A DNA stretch of 24,000 bases from assembly GCF_000152965.1 (NCBI RefSeq), contig NZ_CH902583.1:717343-741342 (forward strand), in the 5' to 3' direction. This document shows positions 7,338 to 23,972 of the stretch, one piece after another; positions within the stretch are counted from its first letter, which is position 1; every line of letters starts with the position of its first letter. The DNA comes from Roseobacter sp. MED193 (GTDB lineage Bacteria > Pseudomonadota > Alphaproteobacteria > Rhodobacterales > Rhodobacteraceae). Position numbers and translations under genes: made by a program. The notes under the pieces were generated by a model, which saw nothing but the letters and a program-made list of their open reading frames with translations, made no database searches and was not told the DNA's origin.

Positions 7338-8021
7338 ATGATCCTGCGCCTTGTTGTGATATTCTCTTTGCTTGCAGCCTGTGGACGCCCGCTCAGCGAG
7401 GCGGAACTCAGCTTCCTCTCCGACATACACGGCGAGAGTATCAACACGGATAGGGTAAGGCTGGTGCGCGGTGCGCCGGTTGCCGCTGTCACCTTTCGGC
7501 GCAAACCTCGCCCACGTATCACCTGCCGCGAGCGCATACTCCCCCCCGTGAAGGAGGAAAAGATCGTCACCTCTTCCCCTGCGGCTATCGCCCTGTTTAA
7601 CCGGATCTTTTTTGTCAAAGACTGGTACACAGAGGACTACATGCCTGCCTATCCAGACCGTCTGTACTTGGTGGAGGCCATGTTGCTGGCCCACGAGATG
7701 ACCCATGTTTGGCAATGGCAGAACCGCCGGATCACCGGCTATCACCCGCTGCGGGCAGCAGCCGAGCACAGCGCCAGCCCTGATCCCTACTTGTTTGAGC
7801 TAGACAACAGCCCCGACTTCCTCAGCTATGGGTATGAACAACAGGGCGCCATCGTCGAAGAATATGTTTGTTGCCGTGCCCTGGCGCCGCAAGCGGCGCG
7901 CAGCAAACGGTTACACAAAATGCTCAAGGCGGTCATGCCTGTCTCGGATCTACCCAAGGCCCGGCAAAGCGATGTCTACCTGCCGTGGAAAGACGCCGAA
8001 TTGCAAGGGATTTGCGCCTGA
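7338..8021 (+). CDS. putative lipoprotein with HExxH metallopeptidase-like motif
   Basis: Lipobox-type N-terminus 'MILRLVVIFSLLAACG' and the motif 'LLAHEMTHVWQWQ'. I cannot name a family. Confidence 0.6.
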   Translation: MILRLVVIFSLLAACGRPLSEAELSFLSDIHGESINTDRVRLVRGAPVAAVTFRRKPRPRITCRERILPPVKEEKIVTSSPAAIALFNRIFFVKDWYTEDYMPAYPDRLYLVEAMLLAHEMTHVWQWQNRRITGYHPLRAAAEHSASPDPYLFELDNSPDFLSYGYEQQGAIVEEYVCCRALAPQAARSKRLHKMLKAVMPVSDLPKARQSDVYLPWKDAELQGICA

Positions 8022-8057
8022 AAAGGCTGAGCCGTGGAACTCCTGCCTGTGGTGCGT

Positions 8058-8465
8058 TCAGCGCTGTATGTCTTCCAGATAGGCCAACAGCGCAGCCAAA
8101 GGGCGCGGCGTTGGAGTAAAGATCCCATCCACTTCAACGGGAACAAGATCGCCTTCAAGCAGGGCACCGAATTCTGGCATTTGCTCCGCCCCGACCCGGC
8201 CGCGGCCGTACCCGTCGATCTGTGACAGCACCGCAGCGCGTGGGAACGCCCCCCGGTTGCGGGTCGTAATTTGCCGTAGATCCGGCGCGCCAACAGAGAG
8301 CTCGCCTGCAGAGGGATCTGCATTCGCACCATGGCAAACAGAGCAGTTTTGGTTGAACAGCGCGGCTCCCTCGGAGGGCTCAGGCATATCAACATCCGCA
8401 GGAGTGCAGTTTGACTGGACAAGCAAGAGCGCCGTCAGGCCCATGGTCACAACTGTGCGTTTCAT
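8058..8465 (-). CDS. c-type cytochrome (135 aa)
   Basis: An internal ATG at 8465 is preceded by AGGAAG on the minus strand. There is a signal-like 'MKRTVVTMGLTALLLVQS', a haem motif 'CSVCHG', and a distal Met candidate in 'EQMPEFG'. The ORF-track N-terminal extension to 8603 looks non-coding. Confidence 0.7.
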   Translation of the reverse strand: MKRTVVTMGLTALLLVQSNCTPADVDMPEPSEGAALFNQNCSVCHGANADPSAGELSVGAPDLRQITTRNRGAFPRAAVLSQIDGYGRGRVGAEQMPEFGALLEGDLVPVEVDGIFTPTPRPLAALLAYLEDIQR

Positions 8466-8716
8466 CAATCTGCTTCCTGTTCTTGGTGGCGACAATTGGT
8501 CTGCGCTCCTCTCGACCTTCATCAAAAGGTGCCTGCCAAACGAAAGTTCCGGGCAGGGTTGCATATAAGCATCAATTTGAATTGGGTACGACAAGAAATT
8601 CAAAAAATAGCTTATCAGTTCCGAGGATTAGCTCTTGTGGCAGTCGCCACTTCCGGCCCAAAGTCGCACGAAACCTCTTGTCCCTAACTGGGGCACATCA
8701 TAATGGCGGAGATCTC

Positions 8717-9151
8717 ATGCTGCACTACGCACTTATTATGCTGGCCGCGGGGCTTGGCATTCCAGTTCTGGCGGCTTTGAATGCCGCATTGGGTCAGCAT
8801 ATCGGCTCTCCCGCAGCCGCCGGCGTCGTGCTTTTTGCCGTCGCCTTTGTCGCCGCCCTCGCCTACTGCCTGATCAAAGGGCCAAGTGCGCTGTTGCTGT
8901 TGCCGCAAGCGCCAAAGCATCTGTTCCTGGCAGGCCTCTTGGTGGCCTTTTATGTGTTGTCGATCACCCATGTTGCACCACATTTCGGCGTCGGCAACGC
9001 AGTCTTTTTTGTGCTGCTGGGGCAGTTGGTCAGCGCCGCCGCCATCGACCATTTTGGCCTCTTTGGTGCCCAGGCCTCGCCACTGACATTGATGCGCGCC
9101 ACCGGAATTTCGGTGATGGCGCTGGGCGTCTGGATCACCCAGCTAGCATAA
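8717..9151 (+). CDS. DMT-superfamily YdcZ/DUF606-like inner-membrane transporter (144 aa)
   Basis: ATG at 8717 follows GGCGGAG. The protein has four hydrophobic segments, and 'LLGQLVSAAAIDHFGLFG' is typical of YdcZ-type proteins. The ORF-track start at 8411 gives an implausible extension. Confidence 0.7.
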   Translation: MLHYALIMLAAGLGIPVLAALNAALGQHIGSPAAAGVVLFAVAFVAALAYCLIKGPSALLLLPQAPKHLFLAGLLVAFYVLSITHVAPHFGVGNAVFFVLLGQLVSAAAIDHFGLFGAQASPLTLMRATGISVMALGVWITQLA

Positions 9152-9192
9152 TTTCACCCCAGCTGGGTATTGCCCCCGGTTCATGCCGACAG

Positions 9193-9813
9193 CTAGGTGC
9201 GCTTTGCCCGCTGCCACTCACCGGCCTCATCGCGAGAAAAGAACCCCTTCTTGTCTGCATTCTGGCGATCATCTTCGCTCAGTCGCTCTGCCCCGTATTC
9301 CACACCAAGCTCGAGCGGAATCATATTGGGAAGTGGATCAGGCTCCTGAGCCTGGATTTCTCTCAACTGGACCCAAACTTCATCGCTCATACGATGTCGC
9401 CAAACGCCGGTCAGCATGCGCCGAAACCGCAGGTCCAACCGGGCCTGTGCCTGATAATGGGGGATCATTGAACCGTGATGCGCCAATTGGTGCTCGGCGA
9501 GCTCACAGGCAATCATATGAAGGTGATCATCAGAGCAGGCCTCTGTCATCGCATCAAGCATGAAGTTCCAAAGTCCATGGGGGTGGGCCCAGAAACAGAT
9601 GGTGACCACCCACTGCCCAATACCCCCTTTGGCAGCCCACCCGCTTAGATGCTGGCAGGCCTCCTGCAACACCTCTTGGGACACAGGCATTTCATGGACA
9701 TATGCAAATGCCCTAAGACGTTCTTCGATGTTCTTATTGTCAGCAGGACGGGTTTCTGCTTCCAGCCAGTATTTCGCTAGGAGCCGTTGAAACGAAACTG
9801 ATGTTTGAGTCAA
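9193..9813 (-). CDS. hypothetical protein (206 aa)
   Basis: Clean ORF with protein-like composition. It is His/Trp-rich ('FWAHPHGLWNF', 'LAEHQLAHHG'). No family recognised. Confidence 0.5.
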   Translation of the reverse strand: MTQTSVSFQRLLAKYWLEAETRPADNKNIEERLRAFAYVHEMPVSQEVLQEACQHLSGWAAKGGIGQWVVTICFWAHPHGLWNFMLDAMTEACSDDHLHMIACELAEHQLAHHGSMIPHYQAQARLDLRFRRMLTGVWRHRMSDEVWVQLREIQAQEPDPLPNMIPLELGVEYGAERLSEDDRQNADKKGFFSRDEAGEWQRAKRT

Positions 9814-9926
9814 AAATTTCCGTGGCTATCACCACGTTGTCTGAAGGGCGTTTCAATCTACGCCGGGGCTGTAAGTACCCTCACACAAAGCCAATCATCA
9901 ACCTATGTCAAGATTGATAACTACTT

Positions 9927-10610
9927 TCACAACTTGACCAGCCTGCCCTGCTCCAGCTTGACCCGGCGGTCCATCCGGGCGGCCAGCTCGTGGTTATGGG
10001 TGGCCACCAGCGCCGACAGGCCGGTACCGGCCACCAAATCCATCAACGCGGCAAAGACCTGATCCGAGGTTCCCGGGTCCAGATTTCCGGTGGGTTCATC
10101 TGCCAACAACACGCGGGGGCTATTCGCCAGCGCCCGGCAAAAGGCGACCCGCTGCTGTTCACCACCTGACAAAGCCGCAGGGCGATGCCCGGCGCGGTCA
10201 GCCAAGCCAACCAGGGTCAAAAGCTCCTCGGCGCGGGCCTCCGCCCCCGACTGCAATACGCCATTGGCAAGTTGAGGCAGGACAATGTTTTCCAACGCAG
10301 TGAACTCAGGCAAAAGGTGGTGGAACTGGTAAACAAACCCAACATCCTGACGCCGCAGACTGGTGCGCATCCCGTCGCCCTTACCACTGACGTCTTGCCC
10401 CGCCACCAGAACAGAGCCGTTATCCGGCACATCCAGCAACCCAGCGATATGCAATAGGGTGGATTTTCCTGCCCCCGAAGGCGCCACCAGCGCCACCATC
10501 TCCCCGGCATTCAAGGTCAGATCTATGCCGCGCAGCACATCTATCTGGTTCGCGCGCCCCTGATTGTAGGATTTGGTCACGGACTTCAGTTCTAATACAG
10601 CCTCACTCAT
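9927..10610 (-). CDS. lolD: lipoprotein-releasing ABC transporter ATP-binding protein
   Basis: Walker A 'APSGAGKST', signature '[15 protein letters not shown]' and Walker B '[11 protein letters not shown]'. It overlaps the upstream FtsX-type permease gene by 8 nt. Confidence 0.85.
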
Positions 10611-11889
10611 AACGCAGCGCCTCCACCGGGTTCAGCCGCGCGGCACGCCGGGCGGGGAAAATTGTCACCACAAAGGAAAGCCCCAGCGACAGCCCAACGG
10701 CTGACAGAACATCCGGCAGGTTCAACTCAGCCGGCAGCGCATAGATCCCCCGGATCGAGGGGTCCCAGACGCCGCCGCCCATCACAAAGTTCACAAAGGA
10801 AAAGATCGGATCAATATAGGTGGCAAAGAGACAGCCCAGAACCACGCCAAACAGCGTGCCCAAGACGCCAGTAAAGGCACCGCAGATGAAAAAGACCCGC
10901 ATCACCGATCCCTCGCTCAGCCCGATTGTGCGTAAGATACCAATATCGCGACCTTTGTTTTTCACCAGCATGATCAGGCCGGAAACGATATTCATCGTCG
11001 CAATCAGCACCAGGATCGACAGGATGATGAACATCACATTGTCCTCGACCTCCAGCGCGCGCAAAAAACCACCCGAGGCATCGCGCCAGGTCCAGACACC
11101 GACGGCGCCCCCGGCCGCGCGCAAAAGCGGCAGAACCTTCAGGTCCACCCCTTCTGGGTCTTCGATCATCACCTCGATCTCATCCGCAACGCCTTCGCGG
11201 TTAAAAAAGCTCTGAGCCTCACCAAAGGGCATGTAAAGGCGGGTCCGGTCGATGTCATAGCGCCCGGCAGTAAAGATGTAGACCACCTCATAGGCTTTGA
11301 CTCTGGGGCTGGTGCCAAAGGGGGTTTTGACGCCATTGGGCGAAATCAGCTTGATGCGATCGCCAACGCTGACCCCCAGCTCTCGCGCCACGCCGGAGCC
11401 AATGGCAACGCCCTCTTGGAAAAGGTCCAGATCGCCGATGGCACCATCACTTTGTGCCACGCCTGGGATCGTCATGATGCCAGCCTTGGCAATGCCAAAG
11501 ACCTCAACACCGGCGTTTCGCTGGCGTGCATTGGCCATGACCTGCCCCTTGACCAGCGGCGCCGCGCGGATCACGCCGGGCACCTGGGCCACGCGGGCCG
11601 CCATCTCGTCAAAATCTTTGATGTAGCGCTCAAAATGACCAGCCTCGTTCAGCTCCCCATGGGCGTAGAGCGTCACATGGGCGTTAGCGCCCAGAATGGT
11701 GCCGACGAACTCTGAACGAAACCCCGAGCGCACCGCCAGCGTGGCAATGAGCGCAAATACCGCCAGCGTAATGCCGATGAGGCTGATCCAGGTCATAACA
11801 GACACGCCGCCCTCGGCCCGTCGCGCCCGCAGGTATCGCCAGGCAATCATCCATTCAAATCGCGCAAACGGCGGGGGGGTGCTGGCCAT
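10603..11889 (-). CDS. lolC: lipoprotein-releasing ABC transporter permease (LolC/E family)
   Basis: 428-aa MacB/FtsX-type topology: N-terminal TM, large periplasmic domain and three C-terminal TMs, ending '[16 protein letters not shown]'. It is coupled to lolD. Confidence 0.82.
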
Positions 11890-14135: not shown

Positions 14136-14429
14136 CGAACCATCATACGCATTTCAAAAGGAGACACTGCATGATCACTGATCATCTTAAACCGCCGTGA
14201 GCGGTCTATTCACGAATATTCGGAAGACACACCGAAACCGCTGCACATCGCAGCACACAACCTGAAATCCCGCCTAAGGGCGTATTTCCGCCCATTGGGG
14301 CAACAGACATGAACGCCAAGGGCGCATATCTGTCTGGGCCAATTCCCGCTGTTGCGGACCGTCCAGCCTGAGGGCTGCCGGTTGGCCATCAACACTAAAC
14401 AATAATTGAAACAACAGAAAGAAAAGGAG

Positions 14430-15323
14430 ATGGATAATCTCACTATGGACTTGGTGCATCTCACCAAGCGTAACCGTGATGGTAGTTCTGGGACGCAGAA
14501 GAACCGCCAACGGGGGCTGACCGCGATGGCGGCAGAACTGAAGCACCTGGGCTACACGCTGAAAACAGCCCGCTCGATCAAGCCAAAGCATATCAACGCC
14601 CTGGTTGAACACTGGCGGGATACGGGGCTTACCAAAGCCACTATTCGCAACCGCATGAGCTGGCTTAGATGGTGGGCACAAAAGGTGGACAAGATCTCGA
14701 TCCTGGACAAGGACAACGCCACATATGAGTTGAACGACGACCGAACAGAGCGCACCAATATCGCGTTTAGTCTGCATCCAGATCAATTGAATGCGCTGAC
14801 AGATCGGCATGTTCAAGCGGCTGTTATGCTACAAGCTGCTTTTGGTCTTCGCCGGCAAGAGGCCATGAAGATCATCCCGAAAGACGCGATCAAGGCTGAC
14901 AGCCTGAAACTCAAAGGAAGTTGGACCAAAGGCGGGCGTCCGCGCACTATTCCGATCACGTCACAGCATCAACGTGTGGTGTTGTTGGCTATTCGTCAGA
15001 TCGTTGAGGATGGCAGTCTGGTCCCAACAGAACGCAGCTATGCCCAGCACATGCGAATTTATGAACGCCAAGTGCACAAGGCGGGCATCGCCCGCGCTCA
15101 CGGCCTGCGTCACAAATACGCGCAAGCTCGTTGTGAAAAGCTTACAGGCATGAAGTGCCCCATCAACGGCGGTCCTGATCGCTCTTTAATGTCAGAGGAT
15201 CAATACGAACTGGATCGCCAAGCTCGCCAAAGGATCTCCAAAGAGCTGGGTCACAACCGAATTGAAATCACAGATGTCTATCTGGGGCGTCTGCAACAGG
15301 GAGGTGCCGTGTCATGTTCGTGA
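14430..15323 (+). CDS. tyrosine site-specific recombinase (plasmid/phage 'integrase' family without classical SAM-like N-domain)
   Basis: The catalytic signature is read directly: 'AFGLRRQEA' (Arg), 'AHGLRHKYA' (HxxR) and 'LGHNRIEITDVYLGR' (His...Tyr). The start is ambiguous between TTG 14406, ATG 14430 and ATG 14445. AAGGAG lies at 14424-14429. Confidence 0.8.
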   Translation: MDNLTMDLVHLTKRNRDGSSGTQKNRQRGLTAMAAELKHLGYTLKTARSIKPKHINALVEHWRDTGLTKATIRNRMSWLRWWAQKVDKISILDKDNATYELNDDRTERTNIAFSLHPDQLNALTDRHVQAAVMLQAAFGLRRQEAMKIIPKDAIKADSLKLKGSWTKGGRPRTIPITSQHQRVVLLAIRQIVEDGSLVPTERSYAQHMRIYERQVHKAGIARAHGLRHKYAQARCEKLTGMKCPINGGPDRSLMSEDQYELDRQARQRISKELGHNRIEITDVYLGRLQQGGAVSCS

Positions 15324-15424
15324 GCTTGTTCATCATTCTAGGAGAAGTGATCTGGCTGATTGCGATTGGGCTTCAATCCGTCCTGCATGGGCTGGCCGTG
15401 CTGATCAATAAGCTGATCCGATGA
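15314..15424 (+). CDS. possible 36-aa hydrophobic peptide (not in ORF track)
   Basis: ATG at 15314 lies about 10 nt after GGGAGG (15298-15303) and overlaps the recombinase stop. Translation by hand gives 'MFVSLFIILGEVIWLIAIGLQSVLHGLAVLINKLIR*', a single TM-like helix with a basic tail. Confidence 0.3.
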   Translation: MFVSLFIILGEVIWLIAIGLQSVLHGLAVLINKLIR

Positions 15425-15520
15425 AGGGGCTATCATCTATAGGTTGCATTTTGTATGAAGGAACTACCCTGGGGCTTTCCTTGGGGCATCGCGATGCTCC
15501 TCACCATGAGGAGTATTGTG

Positions 15521-15709
15521 ATGAAAATGTTGAGCAGACGGCAGGTGACTGAACTGGTTCTGCACTCACCGCAACACGTTGCACGTTTGGAAGCGGCAGG
15601 CCGTCTCCCTGTAAGGGTAAAGCTGGGCCACAACCGCGTGGGGTGGGTTGAGGATGAAGTCTTGGACTGGCTTCAACAGCGCATCAATGTCCGCAATCAA
15701 CAACACTAA
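15521..15709 (+). CDS. AlpA-family HTH regulator/excisionase-like protein (62 aa)
   Basis: ATG at 15521 follows GAGGAG (15508-15513). 'LSRRQVTELVLHSPQHVARLEAAGRLPVRVKLGHNRVGWVEDEVLDWL' fits the AlpA/Phage_AlpA pattern (HTH, then 'FP.p.klg.r.v.W...ev..W'). Confidence 0.75.
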   Translation: MKMLSRRQVTELVLHSPQHVARLEAAGRLPVRVKLGHNRVGWVEDEVLDWLQQRINVRNQQH

Positions 15710-15726
15710 CTCTCCTTGGCGAGAGC

Positions 15727-15758
15727 GAGGGCTGGCCGAGAGGCCAGTCCTCTTTTTT
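15727..15758 (+). terminator. rho-independent terminator after the AlpA-like gene
   Basis: An 11-bp stem pairs 15727-15737 with 15742-15752 (one G-U) around a GAGA tetraloop. It is followed by TTTTTT at 15753-15758. Confidence 0.65.
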
Positions 15759-16122
15759 AACTGATGCGCGGGACGGACGAGGCGATAAACTATTACCAAC
15801 CCCAGGCTGGCCTGGGGCTAATATGACGCGAACAGCCCGTAGCGAACCTTCAGCACTAGACCAGCATATGGCGGCGCGGCCCGCCATTATGGCCATTCGT
15901 ACAGGTCGCGGCATTTTTTCCTGCTGAAATGTTAGATTTTCGGACTTTGTTAACGTTCGAAATACTCCGCCGCTTGTAGTCCCGTGAGACGACAGAACCC
16001 TTTCTTCCATTTTGAACTGAGATTAGTGTTACTATCTTACGGTACATAATTACAAATTAGATTGGATATTTCGCTAAATTGATTTATGGAACCCACAGAC
16101 TTTCGACACGGAACTTAAAGAT

Positions 16123-16872
16123 ATGCTAACAAAGAATTCCACGTTGATTTTTAACTATTTTGATGAGGGTCGGCGCTTGATGAGGGAACACCTAGAAAGC
16201 GATCCGTATGAGAGCCTCAAGCAGAACGTTTATTCGGCGTCTTTTTTATCGCTACTCGAACACACATTGACGCCGATGATGAGTGAGCGGCGTATTAGAG
16301 TGTGGCATTATACCCATCTCTTAAATGACGAGATTGCATCGATGCAAAGAAGGCTGGTTCCCTCTTCACTAATCGGACTCGAGCAGCGGCTTGAATCACT
16401 AATAAATAGAAGGGTAATTTCAAAACAAGAAGCACAGATCATATACGATCAGAGTCCATTTCACCAACAAGGGGGCTTACGGTCCAATCGGGTCTACACA
16501 ACTACGGTTCCTTTTTCACCGGAGTATCCGGGCGTTGTACCTCTTCTGCAGAGCTGGGGCGGAGAGTCGGCCTATTTTTGGCTGTCCGACGAAGTTATTG
16601 CAGCGAAATTGAAAACTATCGGGACGCCACGTATTGTGGAAATCGAAACGGCACTAGAGGATGAGATGAACGCGTATTCTTCCGCGAGGACGGCCACCGA
16701 AGCATGGGCTAGAACTCTCGACGTAGCCGTGGAAGTTTTGAGTAGTGATCTTGCAATCATTGATTGCTTGGATACAGCCAAAGTTCTGCGTGTACATACA
16801 GCGGGCGATGGTGTTTTCGAAAAATTAGCTGCAAGTTACCCATCTGAATATAAGTCACAATTCACCAATTGA
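16123..16872 (+). CDS. orphan hypothetical protein (249 aa), low GC
   Basis: Clean ORF at about 45% GC in a roughly 60% GC genome, with an AT-rich upstream region. No family recognised. The spaced motifs 'RVWHYTHLLN' (H62/T64), 'RVYTTTVPF' (Y125) and 'IVEIET' (E173/E175) are noted under findings. Confidence 0.6.
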   Translation: MLTKNSTLIFNYFDEGRRLMREHLESDPYESLKQNVYSASFLSLLEHTLTPMMSERRIRVWHYTHLLNDEIASMQRRLVPSSLIGLEQRLESLINRRVISKQEAQIIYDQSPFHQQGGLRSNRVYTTTVPFSPEYPGVVPLLQSWGGESAYFWLSDEVIAAKLKTIGTPRIVEIETALEDEMNAYSSARTATEAWARTLDVAVEVLSSDLAIIDCLDTAKVLRVHTAGDGVFEKLAASYPSEYKSQFTN

Positions 16873-17139
16873 TGCCCAGACATTGATATTCATGTTGGGC
16901 TCTGATCTGCCTTGAGGTGGTGCAGCGAGTGTTTCCCCTTCTTTTAAGTCTTTTGGTTTGGCCTTTGTACCATTTTGTAGAAAATTAGCTATGCGAACTT
17001 AGATATACTCACGTTAGAGCGGAAAAACTCGGGTGTTGAGCAAAGCCCTGCGGCAAGGTCTTTTTGTGATAGAGGCAGGCCGCAGTCTGGTAGGCTTGTA
17101 TGAAGGGAGGGCTGACTTGACCTGGATTATACATCAATT

Positions 17140-17178
17140 TCAGAAAGAAAAACGCGAAATCAACCTGGACTGAGGTTG
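17140..17178 (-). terminator. possible terminator of the HNH gene
   Basis: A 'caacct'/'aggttg' hairpin at 17161-17178 lies 3 nt after the stop on the minus strand. A T-rich tract ('cgtttttctttc') follows after an 8-nt gap. Confidence 0.3.
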
Positions 17179-17181
17179 TCC

Positions 17182-18267
17182 TCAAAATACCAAGAAGGCA
17201 AGTATAAGCGCAAGAACTATAAAGCTAATAATTGTGGAGAAAGGTCCACCACCTTCAGGTTGAGGGGGTTTTCCTTGCTCTAGTCTCTTAAAAATATGTC
17301 TTACTCTCGACTGCCAATTTTCAGGAAGTTCAAAATTTATTGTTCTGCTAATGGTCAGTGGTTCTTTGGAGCCAGATTCTTCATGCCTTATTGCTTCTTC
17401 CAGGGCGTCATTCAGAGTTTTTGGGATGCTGGCCAACTTTAATGCTTGCGAACCAAGCTGACCAGCAGCAACCGATTTGCATTCTTCGTACTCATCTGAG
17501 ACAATCGTAGATCTCACGCGCTCTTCGTGCGCAACAATCTGATCTAGCCAGTGAGACAATAGTTGGCAGGTGTGATGGATTTCCTCAATGTTACCTTCTT
17601 CTCCGCGATCACCCCAGCTTGAACTTAACCGGTCAAGCAGCTTTGAAGCTGGTTCTACCATCGCTAACATTTCTCGAATTCGTTGATCTAACCATGCTAG
17701 TAAGTCGTCGTCAGAAATGTGCTCGCCAACCGTATTGTACATTCCATCTTCAAGGTCTCTTAGTTTTCGAAAACTTGATTTGGTAAGGTATTGAAACAGT
17801 TCAGCCGTCAAGCGATATTCCCATCCTTGAGGCTTGTCGCGAACAATGCGTTTTATGATGGCTGGGTATTCTGCAAATTCATCAATAGCATTATCATCAA
17901 TCTCTGCTTGAATGCGATCACTTTCGCTGCCGAGTTCCTTTAAAGTGATTTCCTCCCGCTTCTCTCTCCACGCATATAAAAGTTCAGTGGAGTATAGGCT
18001 TTCATCGGCGTCAACTTTACGATGGCAATTTCGGCACAGCCAAATACCATTAGTAATCGCAGACCGCGCAAGGTTTGTTTGCGTGCCATCGTATCGAGGA
18101 GCGCTAGGGCGAGCCCCTGAAATATGAGCGGCCTCTCCAATGATGGTAGCTTTTTCGGAAGAGGAGTTTGGTCCAACCGTGCTCACACCGCAATCAATAT
18201 TTGAACATCGATAGCCAGCTCTTTTTGCTAACGTGTCTACAGTTTTCTTTGGAAAATCTGGGCTCAT
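17182..18267 (-). CDS. HNH endonuclease-domain protein with unknown helical domain and C-terminal membrane anchor (361 aa)
   Basis: The N-terminus has the HNH zinc-finger pattern C21-x4-C26 ... 'GEAAHI' (H48) ... 'NGIWLCRNCHRKVD' (N73, C78, C81, H82). An uncharacterised helical region of roughly 200 aa follows. The last 20 residues, 'PFSTIISFIVLALILAFLVF', are hydrophobic. The start is placed at ATG 18267, because the ORF-track extension to 18426 overlaps the neighbouring remnant and looks non-coding. The SD is weak. Confidence 0.7.
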   Translation of the reverse strand: MSPDFPKKTVDTLAKRAGYRCSNIDCGVSTVGPNSSSEKATIIGEAAHISGARPSAPRYDGTQTNLARSAITNGIWLCRNCHRKVDADESLYSTELLYAWREKREEITLKELGSESDRIQAEIDDNAIDEFAEYPAIIKRIVRDKPQGWEYRLTAELFQYLTKSSFRKLRDLEDGMYNTVGEHISDDDLLAWLDQRIREMLAMVEPASKLLDRLSSSWGDRGEEGNIEEIHHTCQLLSHWLDQIVAHEERVRSTIVSDEYEECKSVAAGQLGSQALKLASIPKTLNDALEEAIRHEESGSKEPLTISRTINFELPENWQSRVRHIFKRLEQGKPPQPEGGGPFSTIISFIVLALILAFLVF

Positions 18268-18319
18268 AGATGACGTCTTTTTGAACTTTTTCTTTACAGC
18301 TATTGACAAGTTTCCTTCT

Positions 18320-18751
18320 TCATTGATCAGGAAACAAACCCGGCATCCAGCGTCCAGCAAGAGATGCAGAAAAAACGAGCCTGAGTGGCGCACGTGTGCT
18401 GTCAGATGCAATGGCTCCTGTTTCAATCAGAGCGCCGGTCACTCTTCGGGCCGCACGGTCGCTGACACCTAGTATGCCGGGAATGTTGGATCTAGGAACA
18501 GTACCATTGTAGAGCAGTTCCCGTAGGACTAGGTCAGATTTTGACGGAAGTCTGCCCAAGCGCATTTCTTCTTCAGCCCACATTAATATGCGTTCTCGTA
18601 GAGCATCTGGTTTCATGAGTGTCGCCATGAAATCCACTTGGTCGATGCACACCCCAAGGAAAAACTCTACAAATGAGGCGAGAGCGCTTTCGCTAAGTGT
18701 ACCCCTATTGCTCTTTTCTGAACATAGGTACTCGCTTCGAAACTCAGCGAT
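18320..18751 (-). pseudogene. 5'-truncated remnant resembling the C-terminal wHTH region of Fic/DOC-family proteins
   Basis: The open frame extends upstream of the called GTG to a stop at 18752-18754. It reads 'IAEFRSEYLCSEKSNRGTLSESALASFVEFFLGVCIDQVDFMATLMKPDALRERILMWAEEEMRLGRLP...RAARRVTGALIETGAI...PLRLVFSASLAGRWMPGLFP'. This matches my memory of Fic-protein C-termini ('...FFL.VC.DQV.FM...P.L..RI...R.ARR.L..L...G.L...P..L.FP......W.PGLFP'). No Fic core 'HPFxxGNGR' is present. Confidence 0.45.
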
Positions 18752-18993: not shown

Positions 18994-20097
18994 ATGCAAG
19001 CAAAACTCACAGAAACATATATCACCAAACTGAAGCACAAATCAGAACGGTATGATGTTCGCGACACGGTCGAGCGGGGCTTAGTGCTACGCGTCGGCAA
19101 GAAATTCGGCGCGAAACATTGGCATACGTTTGTTTATCGCGGATCAAAACGCCGAATGGTTCGCTTGGGATTATTCCCGCATATGTCGGTGCGTGATGCA
19201 CGCATGGCAGCCATCCAAGCCAAAGCGAATGCGAACGCTCCTTGGACACCTGAGCACATCAAAACGGTGGCTGATCTGTTCGAAGAGTATCGAAAAGCAC
19301 GAGAGCCAAAAATGCGCGCATGGCGTGACGTTCAATCCGCTTGGGATGTCTGGGGGGAGGAGTTCTTAGGTTATCTGAAATTGACCGATGTTTCGATCCA
19401 TCATGGGCGTGAACTACGCAATCATGTTTCAAAGAAATCGACTGAGCTGCGCGGGAGTGCCGTAATTAGATACATTCGACCTATGTTTTCATGGGCGGTT
19501 GATGAAAGTCTGATCGATGAAAATCCTTGGGCAGGATTGAAGGCTACGGCGATTGCCACACCGCGTGATCGAGTGTTGACGAATGAAGAATGGCAAAAGG
19601 TATGGGGTGCCACGTTTAAGGATAACCTCGGGGCGTATTTCAGGTTTCTGATGTTATCGGCGCAGCGCAAAGACAATGTTGCCAGCATGAAATGGGATGA
19701 GATTCAGGGCAATCTTTGGACGATCCCCGCTGAAAAATTCAAAGCGACAAAGAAGGAGAGCGCAAAAGCCCACGAGGTGCCGCTGACACCTGCGTTAATG
19801 GAGATTTTGGAAAATCAGCCCAAACGAGGGCCGTTTGTGTTTGGGCCAACCGGTTTAAAGCAGCTGCGACTCGGTTCACGTGAAAAGGACCGCTTGGCAA
19901 AGAAGGCAGGTGTAGATGACTGGCGGCTTCATGATTTGCGCCGAACCGCTGCAACGAGGATGACGGAGAACAAAATCCCAAGATTCATCGTTGAGCGCGT
20001 TCTTGGCCACGCGGACCGAAGCGTTACTGCGGTCTATGATCGGGCAAATTACAGAGAAGAAAAGAGGCAGGCATTAAACGAATTATCGAAAAACTGA
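18994..20097 (+). CDS. int: tyrosine integrase, P4-like (DUF4102-type N-terminus)
   Basis: 367-aa ORF. The N-terminus 'KLTETYITKLKHKSERYDVRDTVERGLVLRVGKKFGAKHW' fits the P4-integrase arm-binding domain pattern. The catalytic residues are 'SAQRKDNV' (Arg), 'LHDLRRTAATRM' (HxxR) and 'VLGHADRSVTAVYDRANY' (His...Tyr). It lies 126 nt from the tRNA-Cys fragment. Confidence 0.9.
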   Translation: MQAKLTETYITKLKHKSERYDVRDTVERGLVLRVGKKFGAKHWHTFVYRGSKRRMVRLGLFPHMSVRDARMAAIQAKANANAPWTPEHIKTVADLFEEYRKAREPKMRAWRDVQSAWDVWGEEFLGYLKLTDVSIHHGRELRNHVSKKSTELRGSAVIRYIRPMFSWAVDESLIDENPWAGLKATAIATPRDRVLTNEEWQKVWGATFKDNLGAYFRFLMLSAQRKDNVASMKWDEIQGNLWTIPAEKFKATKKESAKAHEVPLTPALMEILENQPKRGPFVFGPTGLKQLRLGSREKDRLAKKAGVDDWRLHDLRRTAATRMTENKIPRFIVERVLGHADRSVTAVYDRANYREEKRQALNELSKN

Positions 20098-20132
20098 ACG
20101 CAAGAGTTGCACCCGTTCATTGGCTGAATGCT

Positions 20133-20909
20133 GTGAACTATTTTATTGATCAGAATCTTGGGAGTGATGTGTATTCAAACAGGGGCGACTTTTCTTTTGA
20201 TGGGCCAGTCGTTGAACCTGAGATGGATGCTTTCGATGCGCAAAATCGAGTTGTGGCCATCGCGGATCACTACACGGCGATCATAAATTCGAGCGAAACT
20301 GTTCTTTTCTATCTTTGCTTTGACCTGTCTATCGGAATCGTTAAGCGAAAGACTGGGTATGCGATGGATCCGATTTGGGCCAACGGCGTCTATGAAGCAG
20401 CGAAAGTCGATTTCAAAGTGTACACGCGTTTGGCTGAAGTGGTCAGTGAAAACCTCACCTTGAATGTTGCAGTTCCAGCAAAATTGAGAGTTTTCGCTGG
20501 CGAGGTAATGTCAGGGATGTTTCCGGTTCCTAACAAACAGGGGCCAGCGATTACACGAGACAAATTGCGCAACTTGGCAATCTTTGAGAGCGTAGATTTC
20601 CTATGTGAGAAGTTGGGGATGCAATTTGAATCGGACGCGAAGGAAACGTGCCCGAATGCGACCGCTTTGGTGTCTGACGGTTTTTCCCATGTCGAATATG
20701 TGAATAGCAGCTTGGGCAAGCCGACGCCCAGCGTCATCAAGCGCATCTGGAAAAGAGAACACCGCGCGCAAATGCGCTATGAGGTGTCAATGCTGCGATG
20801 GCTTGAAAATAAAGAGAAATCAAACAGGTGGTATAAAAAATTCGGATTTATGTTCTGGATGAACAGAAATCTCCAAAATCTAAACACATGCGTTTCCCGG
20901 CAACGCTAA
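20133..20909 (+). CDS. orphan hypothetical protein (up to 258 aa)
   Basis: Clean low-GC ORF directly downstream of int. The called start at 20133 is a GTG without an SD. Alternatives are GTG 20169 (after GGGAG) and ATG 20223. No motif recognised. Confidence 0.5.
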   Translation: MNYFIDQNLGSDVYSNRGDFSFDGPVVEPEMDAFDAQNRVVAIADHYTAIINSSETVLFYLCFDLSIGIVKRKTGYAMDPIWANGVYEAAKVDFKVYTRLAEVVSENLTLNVAVPAKLRVFAGEVMSGMFPVPNKQGPAITRDKLRNLAIFESVDFLCEKLGMQFESDAKETCPNATALVSDGFSHVEYVNSSLGKPTPSVIKRIWKREHRAQMRYEVSMLRWLENKEKSNRWYKKFGFMFWMNRNLQNLNTCVSRQR

Positions 20910-20948
20910 TCATTCTGAGTGCATGCAGATGAATCACAGGAGTCAGCG

Positions 20949-21164
20949 ATGCATGCAGAAGAAACACAGAATGACGAGTTGCAGGAGTACTACCGCGCCG
21001 CAGAGGCCGCCGCCTATCTGAAGATATCCGAAAGCCAACTTTCCAAGTTGCGGATGCAGAAAAACCGCGCACGTGGTCCTAAGTTTGCCAATATCGCAGG
21101 TTGCATCCTGTATCGGCGCGTAGATTTGGATGCTTGGATCCTGTCGAAGATCGTTTCTGCATAG
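20949..21164 (+). CDS. excisionase-family/MerR-like HTH DNA-binding protein (71 aa)
   Basis: ATG at 20949 lies 7 nt after AGGAG (20937-20941). 'YYRAAEAAAYLKISESQLSKLRMQKNRARGPKFANIAGCILYRRVDLDAWI' fits the HTH_17/excisionase pattern. Confidence 0.7.
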   Translation: MHAEETQNDELQEYYRAAEAAAYLKISESQLSKLRMQKNRARGPKFANIAGCILYRRVDLDAWILSKIVSA

Positions 21165-21175
21165 CGGGGGCGATC

Positions 21176-21964
21176 ATGGCAGTGAAATACTACGCACAGA
21201 TCGACTTTGATCTGTTTTCAAACCCAAAATATCGAGCGCTTTCGTCCAATGATATCCGTTACATTTATCTGGCGGCGCATTGTTCGAAACTGAGTAACTA
21301 CATTGGTCTGTTTCGCTATCCAGTAGATATTTGGAGCTACGATGCGAGTGCCAAGCCGCTAGAGATAGAGGCCGCAATTTCTGAACTTCAGCGTTGCGAC
21401 CTCATAGAATACGACTTTGAATATCAAACGCTGCGTCTGGTTGGCTGGTTCAGTTCCCTGAATGCCCCGAACAATGGCAACCAAATGAAAGGCCACATCA
21501 AGAGCTTTTCGGGTTTGCCAACATGTCCGCCAGAAATGTTTTGTCGTGCCGTGTCCGAGTTCACGGTCTCAAGTTTCAAGCAGGCGTTGTCATGGGAAGA
21601 CCTAAGCCCGGAACACAAGAAAGTTCACGATGCCTTCAGGACGTTTTTGAAGGCGCAGTTTTTCAAATACGGCGATGACTTCAATCTGATCCTGATGGAC
21701 GAGATCAACAAACGCGGCAGGGTGACATTTGGCGCGATCCAGTCCTGCTATCAGATGTTGCCGAGCGAAGGGCTGCATAGCGTGCAACCCTTTCGCAAGG
21801 GTATCGAAACCCTTTCGAAACAAGAGAAGAAAAAAGAGGAAAAAACAATAAATCAAAAAACCTTAAACGTTTCGCCGCCTCGTAATTCCAGCGTCACAGA
21901 CAAGCCAAGTTCTTCAGCCCTCAATAGCGAGATCGCCAAACAGGCGCGCAAGGAGCTGATTTGA
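21176..21964 (+). CDS. hypothetical protein, possibly replisome-organizer/replication-initiator-like (262 aa)
   Basis: ATG at 21176 follows GCGGGGG. The N-terminus 'KYYAQIDFDLFSNPKYRALSSNDIRYIYLAAHC' resembles the phage replisome-organizer N-terminal pattern ('W.kl..d.fd..K...L......iYi.Ll'). The C-terminus is Lys/Glu/Ser-rich. The functional call is weak. Confidence 0.45.
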   Translation: MAVKYYAQIDFDLFSNPKYRALSSNDIRYIYLAAHCSKLSNYIGLFRYPVDIWSYDASAKPLEIEAAISELQRCDLIEYDFEYQTLRLVGWFSSLNAPNNGNQMKGHIKSFSGLPTCPPEMFCRAVSEFTVSSFKQALSWEDLSPEHKKVHDAFRTFLKAQFFKYGDDFNLILMDEINKRGRVTFGAIQSCYQMLPSEGLHSVQPFRKGIETLSKQEKKKEEKTINQKTLNVSPPRNSSVTDKPSSSALNSEIAKQARKELI

Positions 21965-22425
21965 TGTCCGGTTCCCCGCAAAGAGCAAGGTTACCCTCCG
22001 ATTACATCGGCGGGACTTGTGAGGGGCGGCAAGCCTCCCCTTCAAACCCCAACCCGACGCGCGCAAGCGGCGTCAAAGAGGGCCTTTCCGAGAGCGTGAT
22101 CTTTCGATGCACACCGTCGGAGAAGGCAGCGCTTGTGGCCAAAGCGCGCGCCGCTGGCCTGCCCAACGCCACGCTGATGCGTGAGGCCTTGGGGCTGGCT
22201 GAGGCACGTCGGCGCAAGCCCGTCCCCCGTGTTGACCCGAAGCTGACCTTTGCGATTGCCCGCGTCGGCGGCAACCTCAATCAGCTCTCCCGCTGGATCA
22301 ACGGAGCGGTCAAATCCGGCCGCGCGAGCCAGATCGATGCGCTCAAGGTCGCGACACAACTGGTGGTCATCGAGCGGCAGATGGCGCAGATCGTGGCGGC
22401 ACACACAGGCGATAACTGCGAATGA
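21964..22425 (+). CDS. mobC: MobC/MbeC-family relaxosome accessory protein (RHH)
   Basis: 'IFRCTPSEKAALVAKARAAGLPNATLMREALGL' (RHH) and 'ARVGGNLNQLSRWIN' (MobC signature). ATG 21964 overlaps the preceding stop (TGATG). An alternative in-frame GTG at 22096 would remove a low-complexity 44-aa N-terminus. The stop overlaps the relaxase start (ATGA). Confidence 0.8.
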   Translation: MSGSPQRARLPSDYIGGTCEGRQASPSNPNPTRASGVKEGLSESVIFRCTPSEKAALVAKARAAGLPNATLMREALGLAEARRRKPVPRVDPKLTFAIARVGGNLNQLSRWINGAVKSGRASQIDALKVATQLVVIERQMAQIVAAHTGDNCE

Positions 22426-23972
22426 TAATCTCGTTCTTCTCCACCGGCACAGGCGGCGGAGCTGCACCCGTCGACTACCTGATCGCACGCGAAGTTCTTG
22501 CCTATGACGAGAACCGCAATTTGATCCGCGACGACACCAGCAAACCGCAAACCAAGATCCGCGACCCGTTGCCTGAGGTGCTGCATGGTAACCCCGACCA
22601 AACCCGCGACCTGATCGACGCGAGCACCAACAAGTGGAGCTACACGGCGGGCGTCATCAGCTTTGCCGACAGCGATGATCCCAGTCCCGACGCCCAGCAA
22701 GAGGCCATTGAGCTATTTGAGGCTCTGGCCTTTGCTGGGCTGGACAGGGACCAATACGATTGTCTCTGGGTGCGCCACTCGCATGAAGGCAACGTCGAGC
22801 TGCACTTCTGCACGCCACGCCTTGAGCTCAGCACCGGCAAGGCGTTGAACATCGCACCGCCAGGCCATGAGAGCGCCTTTTCCAGCCTCCGCGATTTGAT
22901 GAACAAGACGCACGGTTGGGCAGACCCTTTGGACCCAGAACGCGCACGGGAGGTAAGGGCGACGATTGAGGCTCCAACCCGCGCACAGGGGCGCGAGGCG
23001 CTGCACGATTGGCTCCTCGATCAGATCAGCGTCGGCACCGTTACTGACCGTGCCAGCATGATCGACGCACTCACTGACGCGGGATTCGACATCCCCCGTG
23101 CCAGTAAGAATTACATCACCGCCCAAGACCCCGACACCGGCGAGCGCTGGCGTTTGAAAGGAGAGATTTTCCATGACGACTGGCAAGCCGAACCGCCTCG
23201 CCGAGAAATTGAACGCGGACCTGGAGATAGTACGCAGCGACCACGCCGCCTTGATGGCATCTCAGCTGGAGAGCTTCAGGAGCGATTTCAGCAGCATTGC
23301 GACCAGCGCGCTGCATACAATCGAGACCGATATCAGGTTCTTTCTCAGCGACAGCAAGAGCGAATTGCAGAGGCGGAGCGAGACGCTCCGGCGCTGGCTG
23401 ACGATATCGCCTTGGGTGATCGTGGGGCTGATCTTGGCGTGGATCGCCTCGACCGTGGCGGTGAGCTGGCTCTGGATGACCTTTTTGACGCATTCGGAAC
23501 TGACGGAACTGGGTCTGACACGGATCGAACACGCGGGGCAGATTTGGCTGACGCTGGATCCCGATCAGACCGAAATGAAAACCTGCACGATGGCGGGAAC
23601 ACCGATCATCTGCATCGAAGTCAGGGGGCAGTAAATGACGACGCCACTGACAGCCTTGGAGCGCGATTTGCTCGCCTGCGTCGAGCGATTGGTGACGGCC
23701 TGCGAAACCTCAGCGCAGGAATTGCGCGCTTTGGAAGCGCGCTCGACGAACGGGATCGAGAGCAAAGTGAATGGGTTGGCGCATTGCGTGGCGCTGCTGA
23801 TGAAATCGCATCTCTTGTCGGTCGCCACATTGGCCGACTTGCTGAGAGAGGAGCAGACCTACGAGACGCTTCAAGAGGGCTTAGAGGCCAGTTTGAAATT
23901 AGCGAAACACGCCGAGCAACGGCTGAACGAGGCCTGAGTGAACAAGAACGCGGCCATAGCCTCGGCCTTTAA
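22422..23972 (+). CDS. relaxase, ColE1 MbeA-like (MOB-HEN type)
   Basis: 516 aa, against my recollection of about 517 aa for ColE1 MbeA. The N-terminus 'MIISFFSTGTGGGAAPVDYLIA' parallels MbeA 'MIVKFHARGKGGGSGPVDYLLG', with the Tyr at position 19. 'LWVRHSHEGNVELHFCTP' aligns with the MbeA H-E-N motif region. The C-terminal half is low-complexity and overlapped by two nested genes, as in ColE1. Confidence 0.88.
   Translation: MIISFFSTGTGGGAAPVDYLIAREVLAYDENRNLIRDDTSKPQTKIRDPLPEVLHGNPDQTRDLIDASTNKWSYTAGVISFADSDDPSPDAQQEAIELFEALAFAGLDRDQYDCLWVRHSHEGNVELHFCTPRLELSTGKALNIAPPGHESAFSSLRDLMNKTHGWADPLDPERAREVRATIEAPTRAQGREALHDWLLDQISVGTVTDRASMIDALTDAGFDIPRASKNYITAQDPDTGERWRLKGEIFHDDWQAEPPRREIERGPGDSTQRPRRLDGISAGELQERFQQHCDQRAAYNRDRYQVLSQRQQERIAEAERDAPALADDIALGDRGADLGVDRLDRGGELALDDLFDAFGTDGTGSDTDRTRGADLADAGSRSDRNENLHDGGNTDHLHRSQGAVNDDATDSLGARFARLRRAIGDGLRNLSAGIARFGSALDERDREQSEWVGALRGAADEIASLVGRHIGRLAERGADLRDASRGLRGQFEISETRRATAERGLSEQERGHSLGL
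23173..23634 (+). CDS. MbeB/MobB-like mobilization protein nested in the relaxase gene (+1 frame)
   Basis: 153-aa ORF in an alternate frame. AGGAG at 23159-23163 lies 9 nt before the ATG. It has a central TM helix 'ISPWVIVGLILAWIASTVAVSWLWM' and a tail 'GLTRIEHAGQIWLTLDP', consistent with the MbeB architecture as I recall it. Confidence 0.65.
   Translation: MTTGKPNRLAEKLNADLEIVRSDHAALMASQLESFRSDFSSIATSALHTIETDIRFFLSDSKSELQRRSETLRRWLTISPWVIVGLILAWIASTVAVSWLWMTFLTHSELTELGLTRIEHAGQIWLTLDPDQTEMKTCTMAGTPIICIEVRGQ
23635..23937 (+). CDS. MbeD/MobD-like protein nested in the relaxase gene (+1 frame)
   Basis: The 100-aa ORF starts at the ATG immediately after the MbeB-like TAA (TAAATG). AGGGGG at 23623-23628 lies 6 nt upstream. 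The sequence is helical and coiled-coil-like ('LERDLLACVERLVTACETSAQELRALE'). Confidence 0.55.
   Translation: MTTPLTALERDLLACVERLVTACETSAQELRALEARSTNGIESKVNGLAHCVALLMKSHLLSVATLADLLREEQTYETLQEGLEASLKLAKHAEQRLNEA

Follow-up and report, generated by a model that had tools for sequence, protein, structure and literature searches.

The 24,000-nucleotide stretch of Roseobacter sp. MED193 DNA analysed here in silico (contig NZ_CH902583.1, positions 717,343 to 741,342; hereafter the window) carries, at 17182..18267 on the minus strand, a complete coding sequence for a 361-residue protein. Three modules were found in it: an HNH nuclease domain (residues 1-108), an acidic all-helical domain (residues 112-330) and a C-terminal hydrophobic segment of 20 residues. 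Judged from sequence comparison and structure prediction, this is best described as a single-polypeptide effector-sensor protein, with a sensor domain that is undescribed and a subclade that is tail-anchored, and as a member of none of the known systems with which it was compared. We read it, with about even confidence, as a single-protein defence or conflict nuclease that would be activated by oligomerisation and tethered at the inner membrane.

A sequence-only reading of this DNA had placed an open reading frame (ORF) at these positions without stating its strand. The coordinates proved right, and both the ORF list and the window sequence give 361 codons plus a TGA stop, running from 18267 to 17182. 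The upstream limit of the mechanically called frame is a TTG at 18426. We nevertheless take the ATG at 18267 as the real start because 110 aligned homologues begin there, with a consensus of MxPDFxKK in which P3 and F5 are at least 90% conserved. No promoter or terminator consensus was found for the gene on the minus strand. A search covering 5.8 billion proteins (cut-off E<=1e-3) returned 220 homologues, the best 120 of which all have E<=1e-89, are approximately 330-378 residues long and are 41-62% identical. Alpha- and Gammaproteobacteria, Bacteroidota, Nitrospirota and other groups are represented among them, a protein in the same 90% cluster as that of the window derives from a Roseobacter metagenome-assembled genome, and a scan of one genome per species gave 80 loci in many further phyla. 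The full-length protein matches no Pfam family at E<=0.01 and no NCBIfam model, and nothing beyond the HNH module was matched when the whole protein was scanned with PADLOC. The AlphaFold2 model, for which the 110-sequence alignment was the input, has a mean predicted local distance difference test score (pLDDT) of 93.4 and a predicted template modelling score (pTM) of 0.87. It comprises a small beta-beta-alpha domain, long helices over residues 94-330, a linker of lower confidence and a terminal helix at residues 342-360. Mean pairwise identity differs between the segments, at 66% for the HNH domain, 46% for the helical domain, 22% for the transmembrane (TM) segment and 16% for the linker, which is the least conserved.

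The HNH (His-Me finger) nuclease domain lies at 17944..18267 on the minus strand. Three motifs define it, 'YRCSNIDCG' (C21-x4-C26), 'GEAAHI' (H48) and 'NGIWLCRNCH' (N73, C78-x2-C81-H82). All of the peptides quoted in the sequence-only reading are therefore present, although the first had been described as CxxC when its cysteines are in fact four residues apart. H48, N73, C78 and C81 are invariant among the 110 aligned homologues, whilst C21, C26 and H82 are at least 90% conserved. C21, C26, C78 and C81 are putative zinc ligands and H48, N73 and H82 putative catalytic or metal-binding residues; the domain contains the catalytic His, the Asn, the metal-binding His and the four-Cys zinc site of an HNH/His-Me finger nuclease. 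An N-terminal helix is modelled by AlphaFold2 at residues 7-16, and E45 is nearly invariant in the homologue alignment.

Library and structure searches agree with the motifs, and the claim of a complete N-terminal HNH signature was borne out. The PADLOC HNH effector models matched with E values from 1e-9 to 1e-23, and the matches to residues 1-115 include PDC-M68A (2.6e-23), the CBASS 'Effector Endonuclease' (2.5e-15) and SAVED_HNH (1.4e-14). Every one of these matches is confined to the N-terminal part of its model. The PADLOC SduA model was also matched, via its HNH-like N-terminus and over profile positions 26-126 only. The best PDB matches found with Foldseek are Cap5 tetramers (8fmf/9dif), at a probability of 1.0 over approximately 107 columns, and the best PDB match by sequence is 9om4, the HNH-APAZ protein of SPARHA (E=4e-6, residues 9-115), with which the GE.AHI motif is held in common. 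By these matches the domain belongs to the Cap5/SPARHA clade of HNH nucleases that is used by immune effectors. The HNH domains of SPARHA and Cap5 superimpose and dimerise via their N-terminal helix; they are inert as monomers or dimers, and only when dimers have joined to form a tetramer, whose double active site is composite, do they become active and cut double-stranded DNA (PMC12738770).

Past the HNH domain, the resemblance to each of these systems ends. Cap5 (HNH-SAVED; 8fmf, 9dif, 7rwk) is the best structural and profile match to residues 1-107 and also places a regulatory domain behind an N-terminal HNH domain, and its ligand-driven tetramerisation offers a possible mechanistic template for the protein here. 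However, no SAVED domain was found with Pfam, the PADLOC and Foldseek alignments end at approximately residues 107-115, and the remainder is all-helical. Moreover, there is no CD-NTase operon: none is present in the window and none recurs as a conserved neighbour at 77 homologous loci. In SPARHA (9om4; PMC12738770) the GE.AHI motif, the Zn-finger HNH motif and the dimerisation helix at the N-terminus all have counterparts in the window protein, but the match to 9om4 covers residues 9-115 only, and the window protein has neither an APAZ domain nor a pAgo neighbour. PDC-M68A carries the same HNH module as an N-terminal cassette, but only positions 1-115 of its 253 profile positions align; a literature search for PDC-M68 found no paper. 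Shedu SduA differs in that no Pfam DUF4263 match was obtained, the PADLOC match being due to the HNH-like N-terminal part alone.

The same Cap5-type cassette (37-47% identity over approximately 105-135 residues) was found in 250 plasmid records, where the C-terminal parts are unrelated, and it also heads unrelated proteins in the 'lysogenic conversion' hotspots of P2-like prophages. This points to an entire group of 'HNH + X' single-gene systems that are yet to be characterised. One such protein, ORF2 of the P2-EC46 Z-region (L091, 488-1594; 368 residues, HNH domain 46.6% identical), was considered as a member of the present family and rejected, as its C-terminal part is unrelated (hhalign probability 3.5%).

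The acidic all-helical domain is encoded at 17278..17934 on the minus strand. Its helices fall within the modelled stretch 94-330 at pLDDT>90, in keeping with the approximately 200 helical residues that the sequence-only reading had expected after the HNH domain. Its most conserved features are the motifs DKPxGWEYxLTAEL, SWGxxGExG(D/N)xxEI and (H/F)EE(R) and a C-terminal strand TI(N/T)FELPxxW, and it has a net charge of -16 in the window protein against a family median of -8.5. The domain has no match in Pfam (2025), NCBIfam (2026) or PADLOC 2.0. When the AlphaFold2 model was compared with PDB and BFVD using Foldseek, this part gave only generic helical-bundle noise (talin, E=0.07), and a profile of the domain gave nothing significant against PDB sequences (best 4nqf, E=0.15). 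The earlier impression of a middle domain with no recognisable motif thus held across all five of these resources.

A profile of residues 112-335 was then used, without a word index, to search 1.84 billion cluster representatives (50% identity). At E<=1e-3 it matched 803 representatives, of which 271 also passed E<=1e-10. Among the best 150 of the 803, 67 have an HNH domain, 69 are short or fragmentary and 14 have some other N-terminal domain of 100-380 residues. Pfam identified several of these other domains fused to the helical domain: TIR_2 (P0151, P0160), DUF4062 (P0233, P0248, P0261), the Schlafen domain SLFN_AlbA_2 (P0255), the NACHT-associated N-terminal helical domain NNH5 (P0229), DUF4236 with TM segments (P0223) and, as a weak match, a CAP12-type TIR (P0264). 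A word-indexed search with the helical domains of non-HNH variants gave just 24 matches, which included extra TIR and DUF4062 fusions. The alignment shows motifs common to all variants, namely [DE][KR]Px.WE[YF].LT.ELL, SWG.PG.PGD..EI, W-E-E and the terminal strand. In PADLOC only the N-terminal heads of the variants are recognised (ThsB-like TIR, PDC-S50), never the helical domain. An 'EIHH' sequence was considered as a catalytic motif within the helical domain and discarded, its histidines being lost in the non-HNH variants.

Because the same domain sits behind interchangeable immune effectors, the helical domain is probably a sensor or switch module, and the earlier guess of a 'sensor or regulatory module' gains support from the TIR, DUF4062, Schlafen and NNH5 fusions. 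Single-gene fusions of effector and sensor are an established defence architecture, as in the prokaryotic Schlafens (PMC13056530). By analogy, a constant domain behind swapped TIR, HNH, Schlafen and DUF4062 heads would be the signature of immune sensors such as STAND/NLR proteins and Schlafens. The likeness to Schlafens (PMC13056530) and to NLR/Avs proteins lies in this pairing of a constant sensor with interchangeable N-terminal effectors; the difference from NLR/Avs is that the module here is a helical domain of approximately 220 residues without an NTPase, far smaller than STAND proteins. The helical domain is acidic, and DNA binding by it is therefore unlikely. It could instead mask the basic DNA-binding face of the HNH domain, or bind a protein or small ligand.

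These properties bear on whether the protein might be a modification-dependent (type IV-like) or DNA-specific restriction nuclease, in which the helical domain would read a feature of the DNA and the hydrophobic tail would be incidental. The gene is a single one without a methyltransferase partner, as such an enzyme would have it, and McrA-type enzymes are examples of island-borne Zn-finger HNH proteins that stand alone. However, an acidic domain that matches no DNA-reader fold is poorly suited to that role, the same domain is coupled elsewhere to effectors that do not act on DNA (TIR, Schlafen), and the HNH domain falls in the Cap5/SPARHA effector clade. We consider restriction of this kind very unlikely.

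The third module begins with a Pro/Gly-rich linker at residues 331-341 (LEQGKPPQPEG..., 17245..17277, minus strand), where pLDDT dips to 75-84. It is followed by the hydrophobic tail, residues 342-361 (GGPFSTIISFIVLALILAFLVF; 17185..17244, minus strand), which is predicted to be a single TM helix with the N-terminus inside. The tail, 'PFSTIISFIVLALILAFLVF', comes after 'KPPQPEGGGP' and closes the protein, the last residues before the stop being ...KPPQPEGGGPFSTIISFIVLALILAFLVF. Its Kyte-Doolittle mean over 19 residues is 2.85, and its summed Hessa-scale dG is -4.1 kcal/mol, whereas no other segment of the protein scores better than +11.9. The segment is single and terminal, there is no other TM segment and no signal peptide, and AlphaFold2 models it as a helix (342-360); the tail-anchor topology proposed earlier is accordingly also what these predictions give. 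In TM-bearing homologues a median of 0 residues follow the segment and a median of 5 Lys or Arg residues occur in the 25 residues before it. Within the crown clade of the family its hydrophobicity is kept whilst its sequence drifts. The tail is thus predicted to be a lipid-embedded anchor and the protein cytoplasmic.

The segment might instead serve in oligomerisation, as a degron or as a sorting signal that is cleaved off, in which case the protein would be soluble. TM-less relatives evidently function, and 76 of 110 TM-bearing homologues have a [G/S/N]-Cys bordering the segment, a feature with a superficial likeness to sorting signals. However, known sorting signals need a signal peptide, which is lacking, and no NCBIfam sorting-signal model was matched. 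The segment has 19-20 consecutive apolar residues with the hydrophobicity values given above, it is always at the extreme C-terminus with basic residues on its N-terminal side only, and it conserves nothing but its hydrophobicity, as helices that face lipid typically do. A role other than anchoring is therefore rated as highly improbable, and a membrane anchor remains the reading followed here. The [G/S/N]-Cys itself lies at the cytoplasmic edge of the TM helix (...SGCLT..., ...NGCF...); it recalls C-terminal sorting signals, yet no basic cluster follows the helix, and the window protein has GGGPFST in its place.

How widely the tail is conserved depends on the depth of sampling. It is present in approximately 108 of the best 120 homologues, but in only 36 of 63 full-length species-level homologues and 10 of 53 complete HNH-type cluster representatives at 50% identity. 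Absence from most homologues, which the sequence-only reading had named as evidence against itself, is thus partly borne out. No C-terminal TM segment was found among the non-HNH variants. In a neighbour-joining tree of residues 1-330, the tail is absent from the basal clades (31-37% identity) and from one alphaproteobacterial clade, whereas the window protein belongs to a large crown clade that carries the tail, with approximately eight scattered clean losses inside that clade. The possibility that the TM-less members are recent truncations was rejected, since 11 of the 12 loci checked have no downstream hydrophobic remnant in other frames. The only downstream hydrophobic stretch at the remaining locus, L025, appears to be the start of the next gene. 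From this distribution tethering is best seen as a derived subclade add-on that is maintained by selection and is dispensable for the core mechanism. Because soluble versions are common, the core must be auto-inhibited by itself.

A further observation concerns the ends of TM-less proteins. Some TM-less relatives, including TIR fusions, end in Trp-rich tails (...STWW, ...GSWW, ...RSWW, ...RRWWL; P0151, P0160, P0167, P0161), and a Trp occurs within the last six residues of 17 of 90 TM-less members against approximately 7% expected. Such a tail could be an interfacial or docking motif in place of the anchor.

Under the mechanism that we propose, the acidic helical domain would keep the Cap5/SPARHA-type HNH domain off. 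On an infection-linked cue, it would drive self-association such that composite HNH active sites are assembled, and in relatives the same switch would be wired to TIR, DUF4062, Schlafen/AlbA_2 and NNH5 effectors. The tail anchor would keep the assembly, which lies in the cytoplasm, at the inner surface of the cell membrane, so that the nuclease is close to entering DNA or to events at the envelope and at a distance from most of the nucleoid. Confinement to two dimensions may, in addition, raise the local concentration and so favour oligomerisation.

The sequence-only reading had called membrane-tethered HNH effectors unusual. Membrane-tethered nucleases are no longer unprecedented, as SNIPE (PD-lambda-1; Saxton et al., Nature 2026), a membrane-bound nuclease that cleaves phage DNA during injection, has been published (PMC13190303). 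SNIPE consists of an N-terminal TM segment, a basic DNA-binding DUF4041 domain and a C-terminal GIY-YIG nuclease, and is toxic when its TM segment is deleted (PMC13190303). Under membrane localisation, a 2026 review names Zorya, Kiwa and SNIPE only. The window protein resembles SNIPE in being the product of a single gene with three modules (an anchor, a nuclease and, between them, a domain whose function had not been known), in having its bulk in the cytoplasm, which is a prediction here, and in its sequence-variable anchor, absent from 34% of SNIPE homologues and from 43% of species-level homologues here. It differs in having an N-terminal HNH domain, an acidic helical domain and a C-terminal anchor, with no homology between the two proteins. 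Compared in this way, the protein is an analogue of SNIPE and not a member.

The comparison raises the possibility of a SNIPE-like gatekeeper, in which the helical domain would recognise the phage injection or DNA-entry machine, the HNH domain would cut entering DNA only and the cell would survive. SNIPE sets the precedent that membrane localisation can give discrimination of self from non-self (PMC13190303). The mirror-image order of nuclease, middle domain and TM segment fits such a role, as do the maintenance of the anchor by selection across a large crown clade and the 11-residue Pro/Gly linker, which keeps the cytoplasmic part near the bilayer. However, the middle domain of SNIPE is basic and DNA-binding whereas that here is acidic (-16; median -8.5), there is no homology to DUF4041 or GIY-YIG, and the middle domain is not diversified in the way that the specificity regions of SNIPE are. 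Moreover, there are the approximately eight independent clean losses of the anchor within the crown clade and entire clades without a TM segment, and the TIR and Schlafen versions carry effectors that do not act on incoming DNA. In view of the acidic middle domain, the frequent loss of the anchor and the use of the same switch for effectors that leave incoming DNA alone, we rate the gatekeeper lower and regard it as unlikely. More tentatively still than the reading of an oligomerisation-activated, tethered nuclease, it is possible that the helical domain, with its 803 cluster representatives and its HNH, TIR, DUF4062, Schlafen and NNH5 partners, is a new, widespread and NTPase-free miniature immune switch that turns effectors on by self-assembly, and that the tail-anchored HNH subclade is a second independent invention of the SNIPE strategy, with a nuclease stationed at the inner membrane to destroy invading DNA where it enters.

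Turning to the genes around the family, ORFs within 6 kb were clustered at 77 of the 80 loci. No family is common to more than 8 of the 77, those that recur are generic (SDR, transposase, ABC-F), and splitting the loci into TM-bearing and TM-less still revealed no conserved partner gene. Because there is no conserved neighbour among the 77 loci, the HNH gene is a stand-alone unit. The 150 immediate neighbours, classified with Pfam and PADLOC, are heterogeneous. Few are defence genes (Gabija GajA/GajB, MADS, SoFic and Septu-like ATPases, each in 2-3 loci), and none of the PADLOC defence families listed matched more than 3 of the 150.

Several observations weigh against the reading of a tethered defence nuclease. 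A nuclease fixed to the membrane would have little access to the chromosome, and Cap5-style abortive infection is not easily reconciled with that. As 27 of 63 species-level homologues and every non-HNH variant lack the anchor, the safety of the nuclease cannot depend on tethering, in contrast to SNIPE. Sensors of phage proteins are often hypervariable, whereas the helical domain here shows a fair degree of conservation, at a mean identity of 46% and with many invariant residues, among them W149, E150, G219 and E248. Association with defence islands is only anecdotal: the majority of the 150 immediate neighbours either have housekeeping roles or lack annotation, those TIR and DUF4062 variants whose loci were inspected stand by themselves between housekeeping genes, and the Flavobacterium copies are syntenic, suggesting vertical inheritance. 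No full-length relatives were found in 72,556 plasmids or 50,697 phage records, and no family member is included in PADLOC 2.0, NCBIfam or Pfam.

Two settings recur at individual loci. In four Flavobacterium species (L020, L027, L033, L075) the gene occupies the same chromosomal slot, with pyrR- and pyrB-like genes on one side and an ABC-F gene on the other, as expected of vertical descent in this genus and not of transport by an obvious mobile element. At a few sphingomonad loci (L039 and L040, Sphingopyxis) a gene for a 650-residue UvrD/GajB-like helicase (7973-9922) ends 67 nucleotides upstream on the same strand. GajA and GajB matches occur among the immediate neighbours in 3 loci, and the UvrD/GajB-like neighbour may reflect a local defence island rather than a functional partnership.

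In the window, the HNH gene is carried by an integrase-bearing, partly low-GC island at 14406..18652, recognised from Pfam matches, guanine plus cytosine (GC) content and a gene order that is repeated on two independent metagenome contigs (L001, L002). The island begins with an integrase of the Phage_int_SAM_2/Integrase_1 type (14406-15323, plus strand) and an AlpA gene (15455-15709, plus strand), both assigned by Pfam. GC content is 44-48% from approximately 15.5 kb onward, and 44-50% over approximately 15.5 to 22 kb, as compared with 57-60% in the flanks. A second mobile element is adjacent (18994..23972, plus strand). It comprises, from Pfam, a P4-type integrase (P4-like Arm-DNA-bind_3, 18994-20097), an HTH_17 protein (20919-21164), MobC/NikA (21961-22425) and a relaxase-like ORF (22422-23972), all on the plus strand. 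The two integrases are of different types and lie 3.7 kb apart, and the region resembles a pair of integrative elements in tandem, of which one is mobilisable. There is no transfer RNA integration target in the window, and a search for att-site direct repeats around the island gave short matches at chance level only.

Two further ORFs accompany the HNH gene on the island. A 249-residue ORF (16123-16872, plus strand) is convergent with it and is carried along on L001 and L002. Its sole match is a sub-threshold one to a YgxA-like nucleotidyltransferase substrate-binding domain (E=0.005), and it may be another cargo or defence gene. A 110-residue ORF without a family match lies directly upstream of the HNH gene (18320-18652, minus strand) and is called as a 102-residue gene on L001. 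Upstream of its GTG start the frame stays open back to a stop codon, with no ATG there, and the ORF may be the remnant of a longer gene. Homologues of these two ORFs and of two other window neighbours were not found near any relative in the family. Elsewhere in the window, a DUF6869-family protein (9193-9813, minus strand, E=1.5e-14) adjoins a MacB-type ABC transporter pair (9927-11889); this region is a chromosomal part of the window and is unrelated to the HNH protein.

The two closest relatives have similar surroundings. The Phaeobacter inhibens copy has AIPR, ArdA and recombinases as neighbours, and a copy on a metagenome contig (P0002) has AAA_13, a Lit-type Peptidase_U49 and TraG. The three closest members, that of the window included, are all on mobile or defence islands. 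Such carriage would suit a weapon or addiction module of selfish elements, acting in competitor exclusion or post-segregational killing, with the helical domain binding an inhibitor supplied by the element or the host. The recombinases, ArdA and TraG beside these copies mark integrative or conjugative elements, and related HNH modules are found in the P2 prophage hotspots mentioned above. However, no candidate for a conserved small antitoxin or immunity gene was found at the 77 loci, many copies are chromosomal and lie between housekeeping genes, and the partner effectors (TIR, DUF4062, Schlafen, NNH5) are typical of anti-phage sensors such as STAND/NLR. A selfish module of this kind is quite improbable, and a defence or conflict nuclease under the control of a sensor-like helical domain remains the preferred reading.

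Membrane sequestration of a nuclease has only recently been recognised as a means of discriminating self from non-self (SNIPE, Zorya, Kiwa). If the reading given here is true, a non-homologous family of mirror-image architecture would show that this strategy is a general one, reached by convergence. The helical domain is of interest even without the anchor, as a small, abundant candidate sensor or switch that lies outside Pfam 2025, NCBIfam 2026, PADLOC 2.0 and PDB 2026. Its natural effector swaps provide a comparative system for identifying what it senses and for learning how a domain of approximately 220 residues may gate four or five toxic activities. The contribution of tethering can likewise be gauged cleanly from sister proteins that occur naturally with and without the TM segment.

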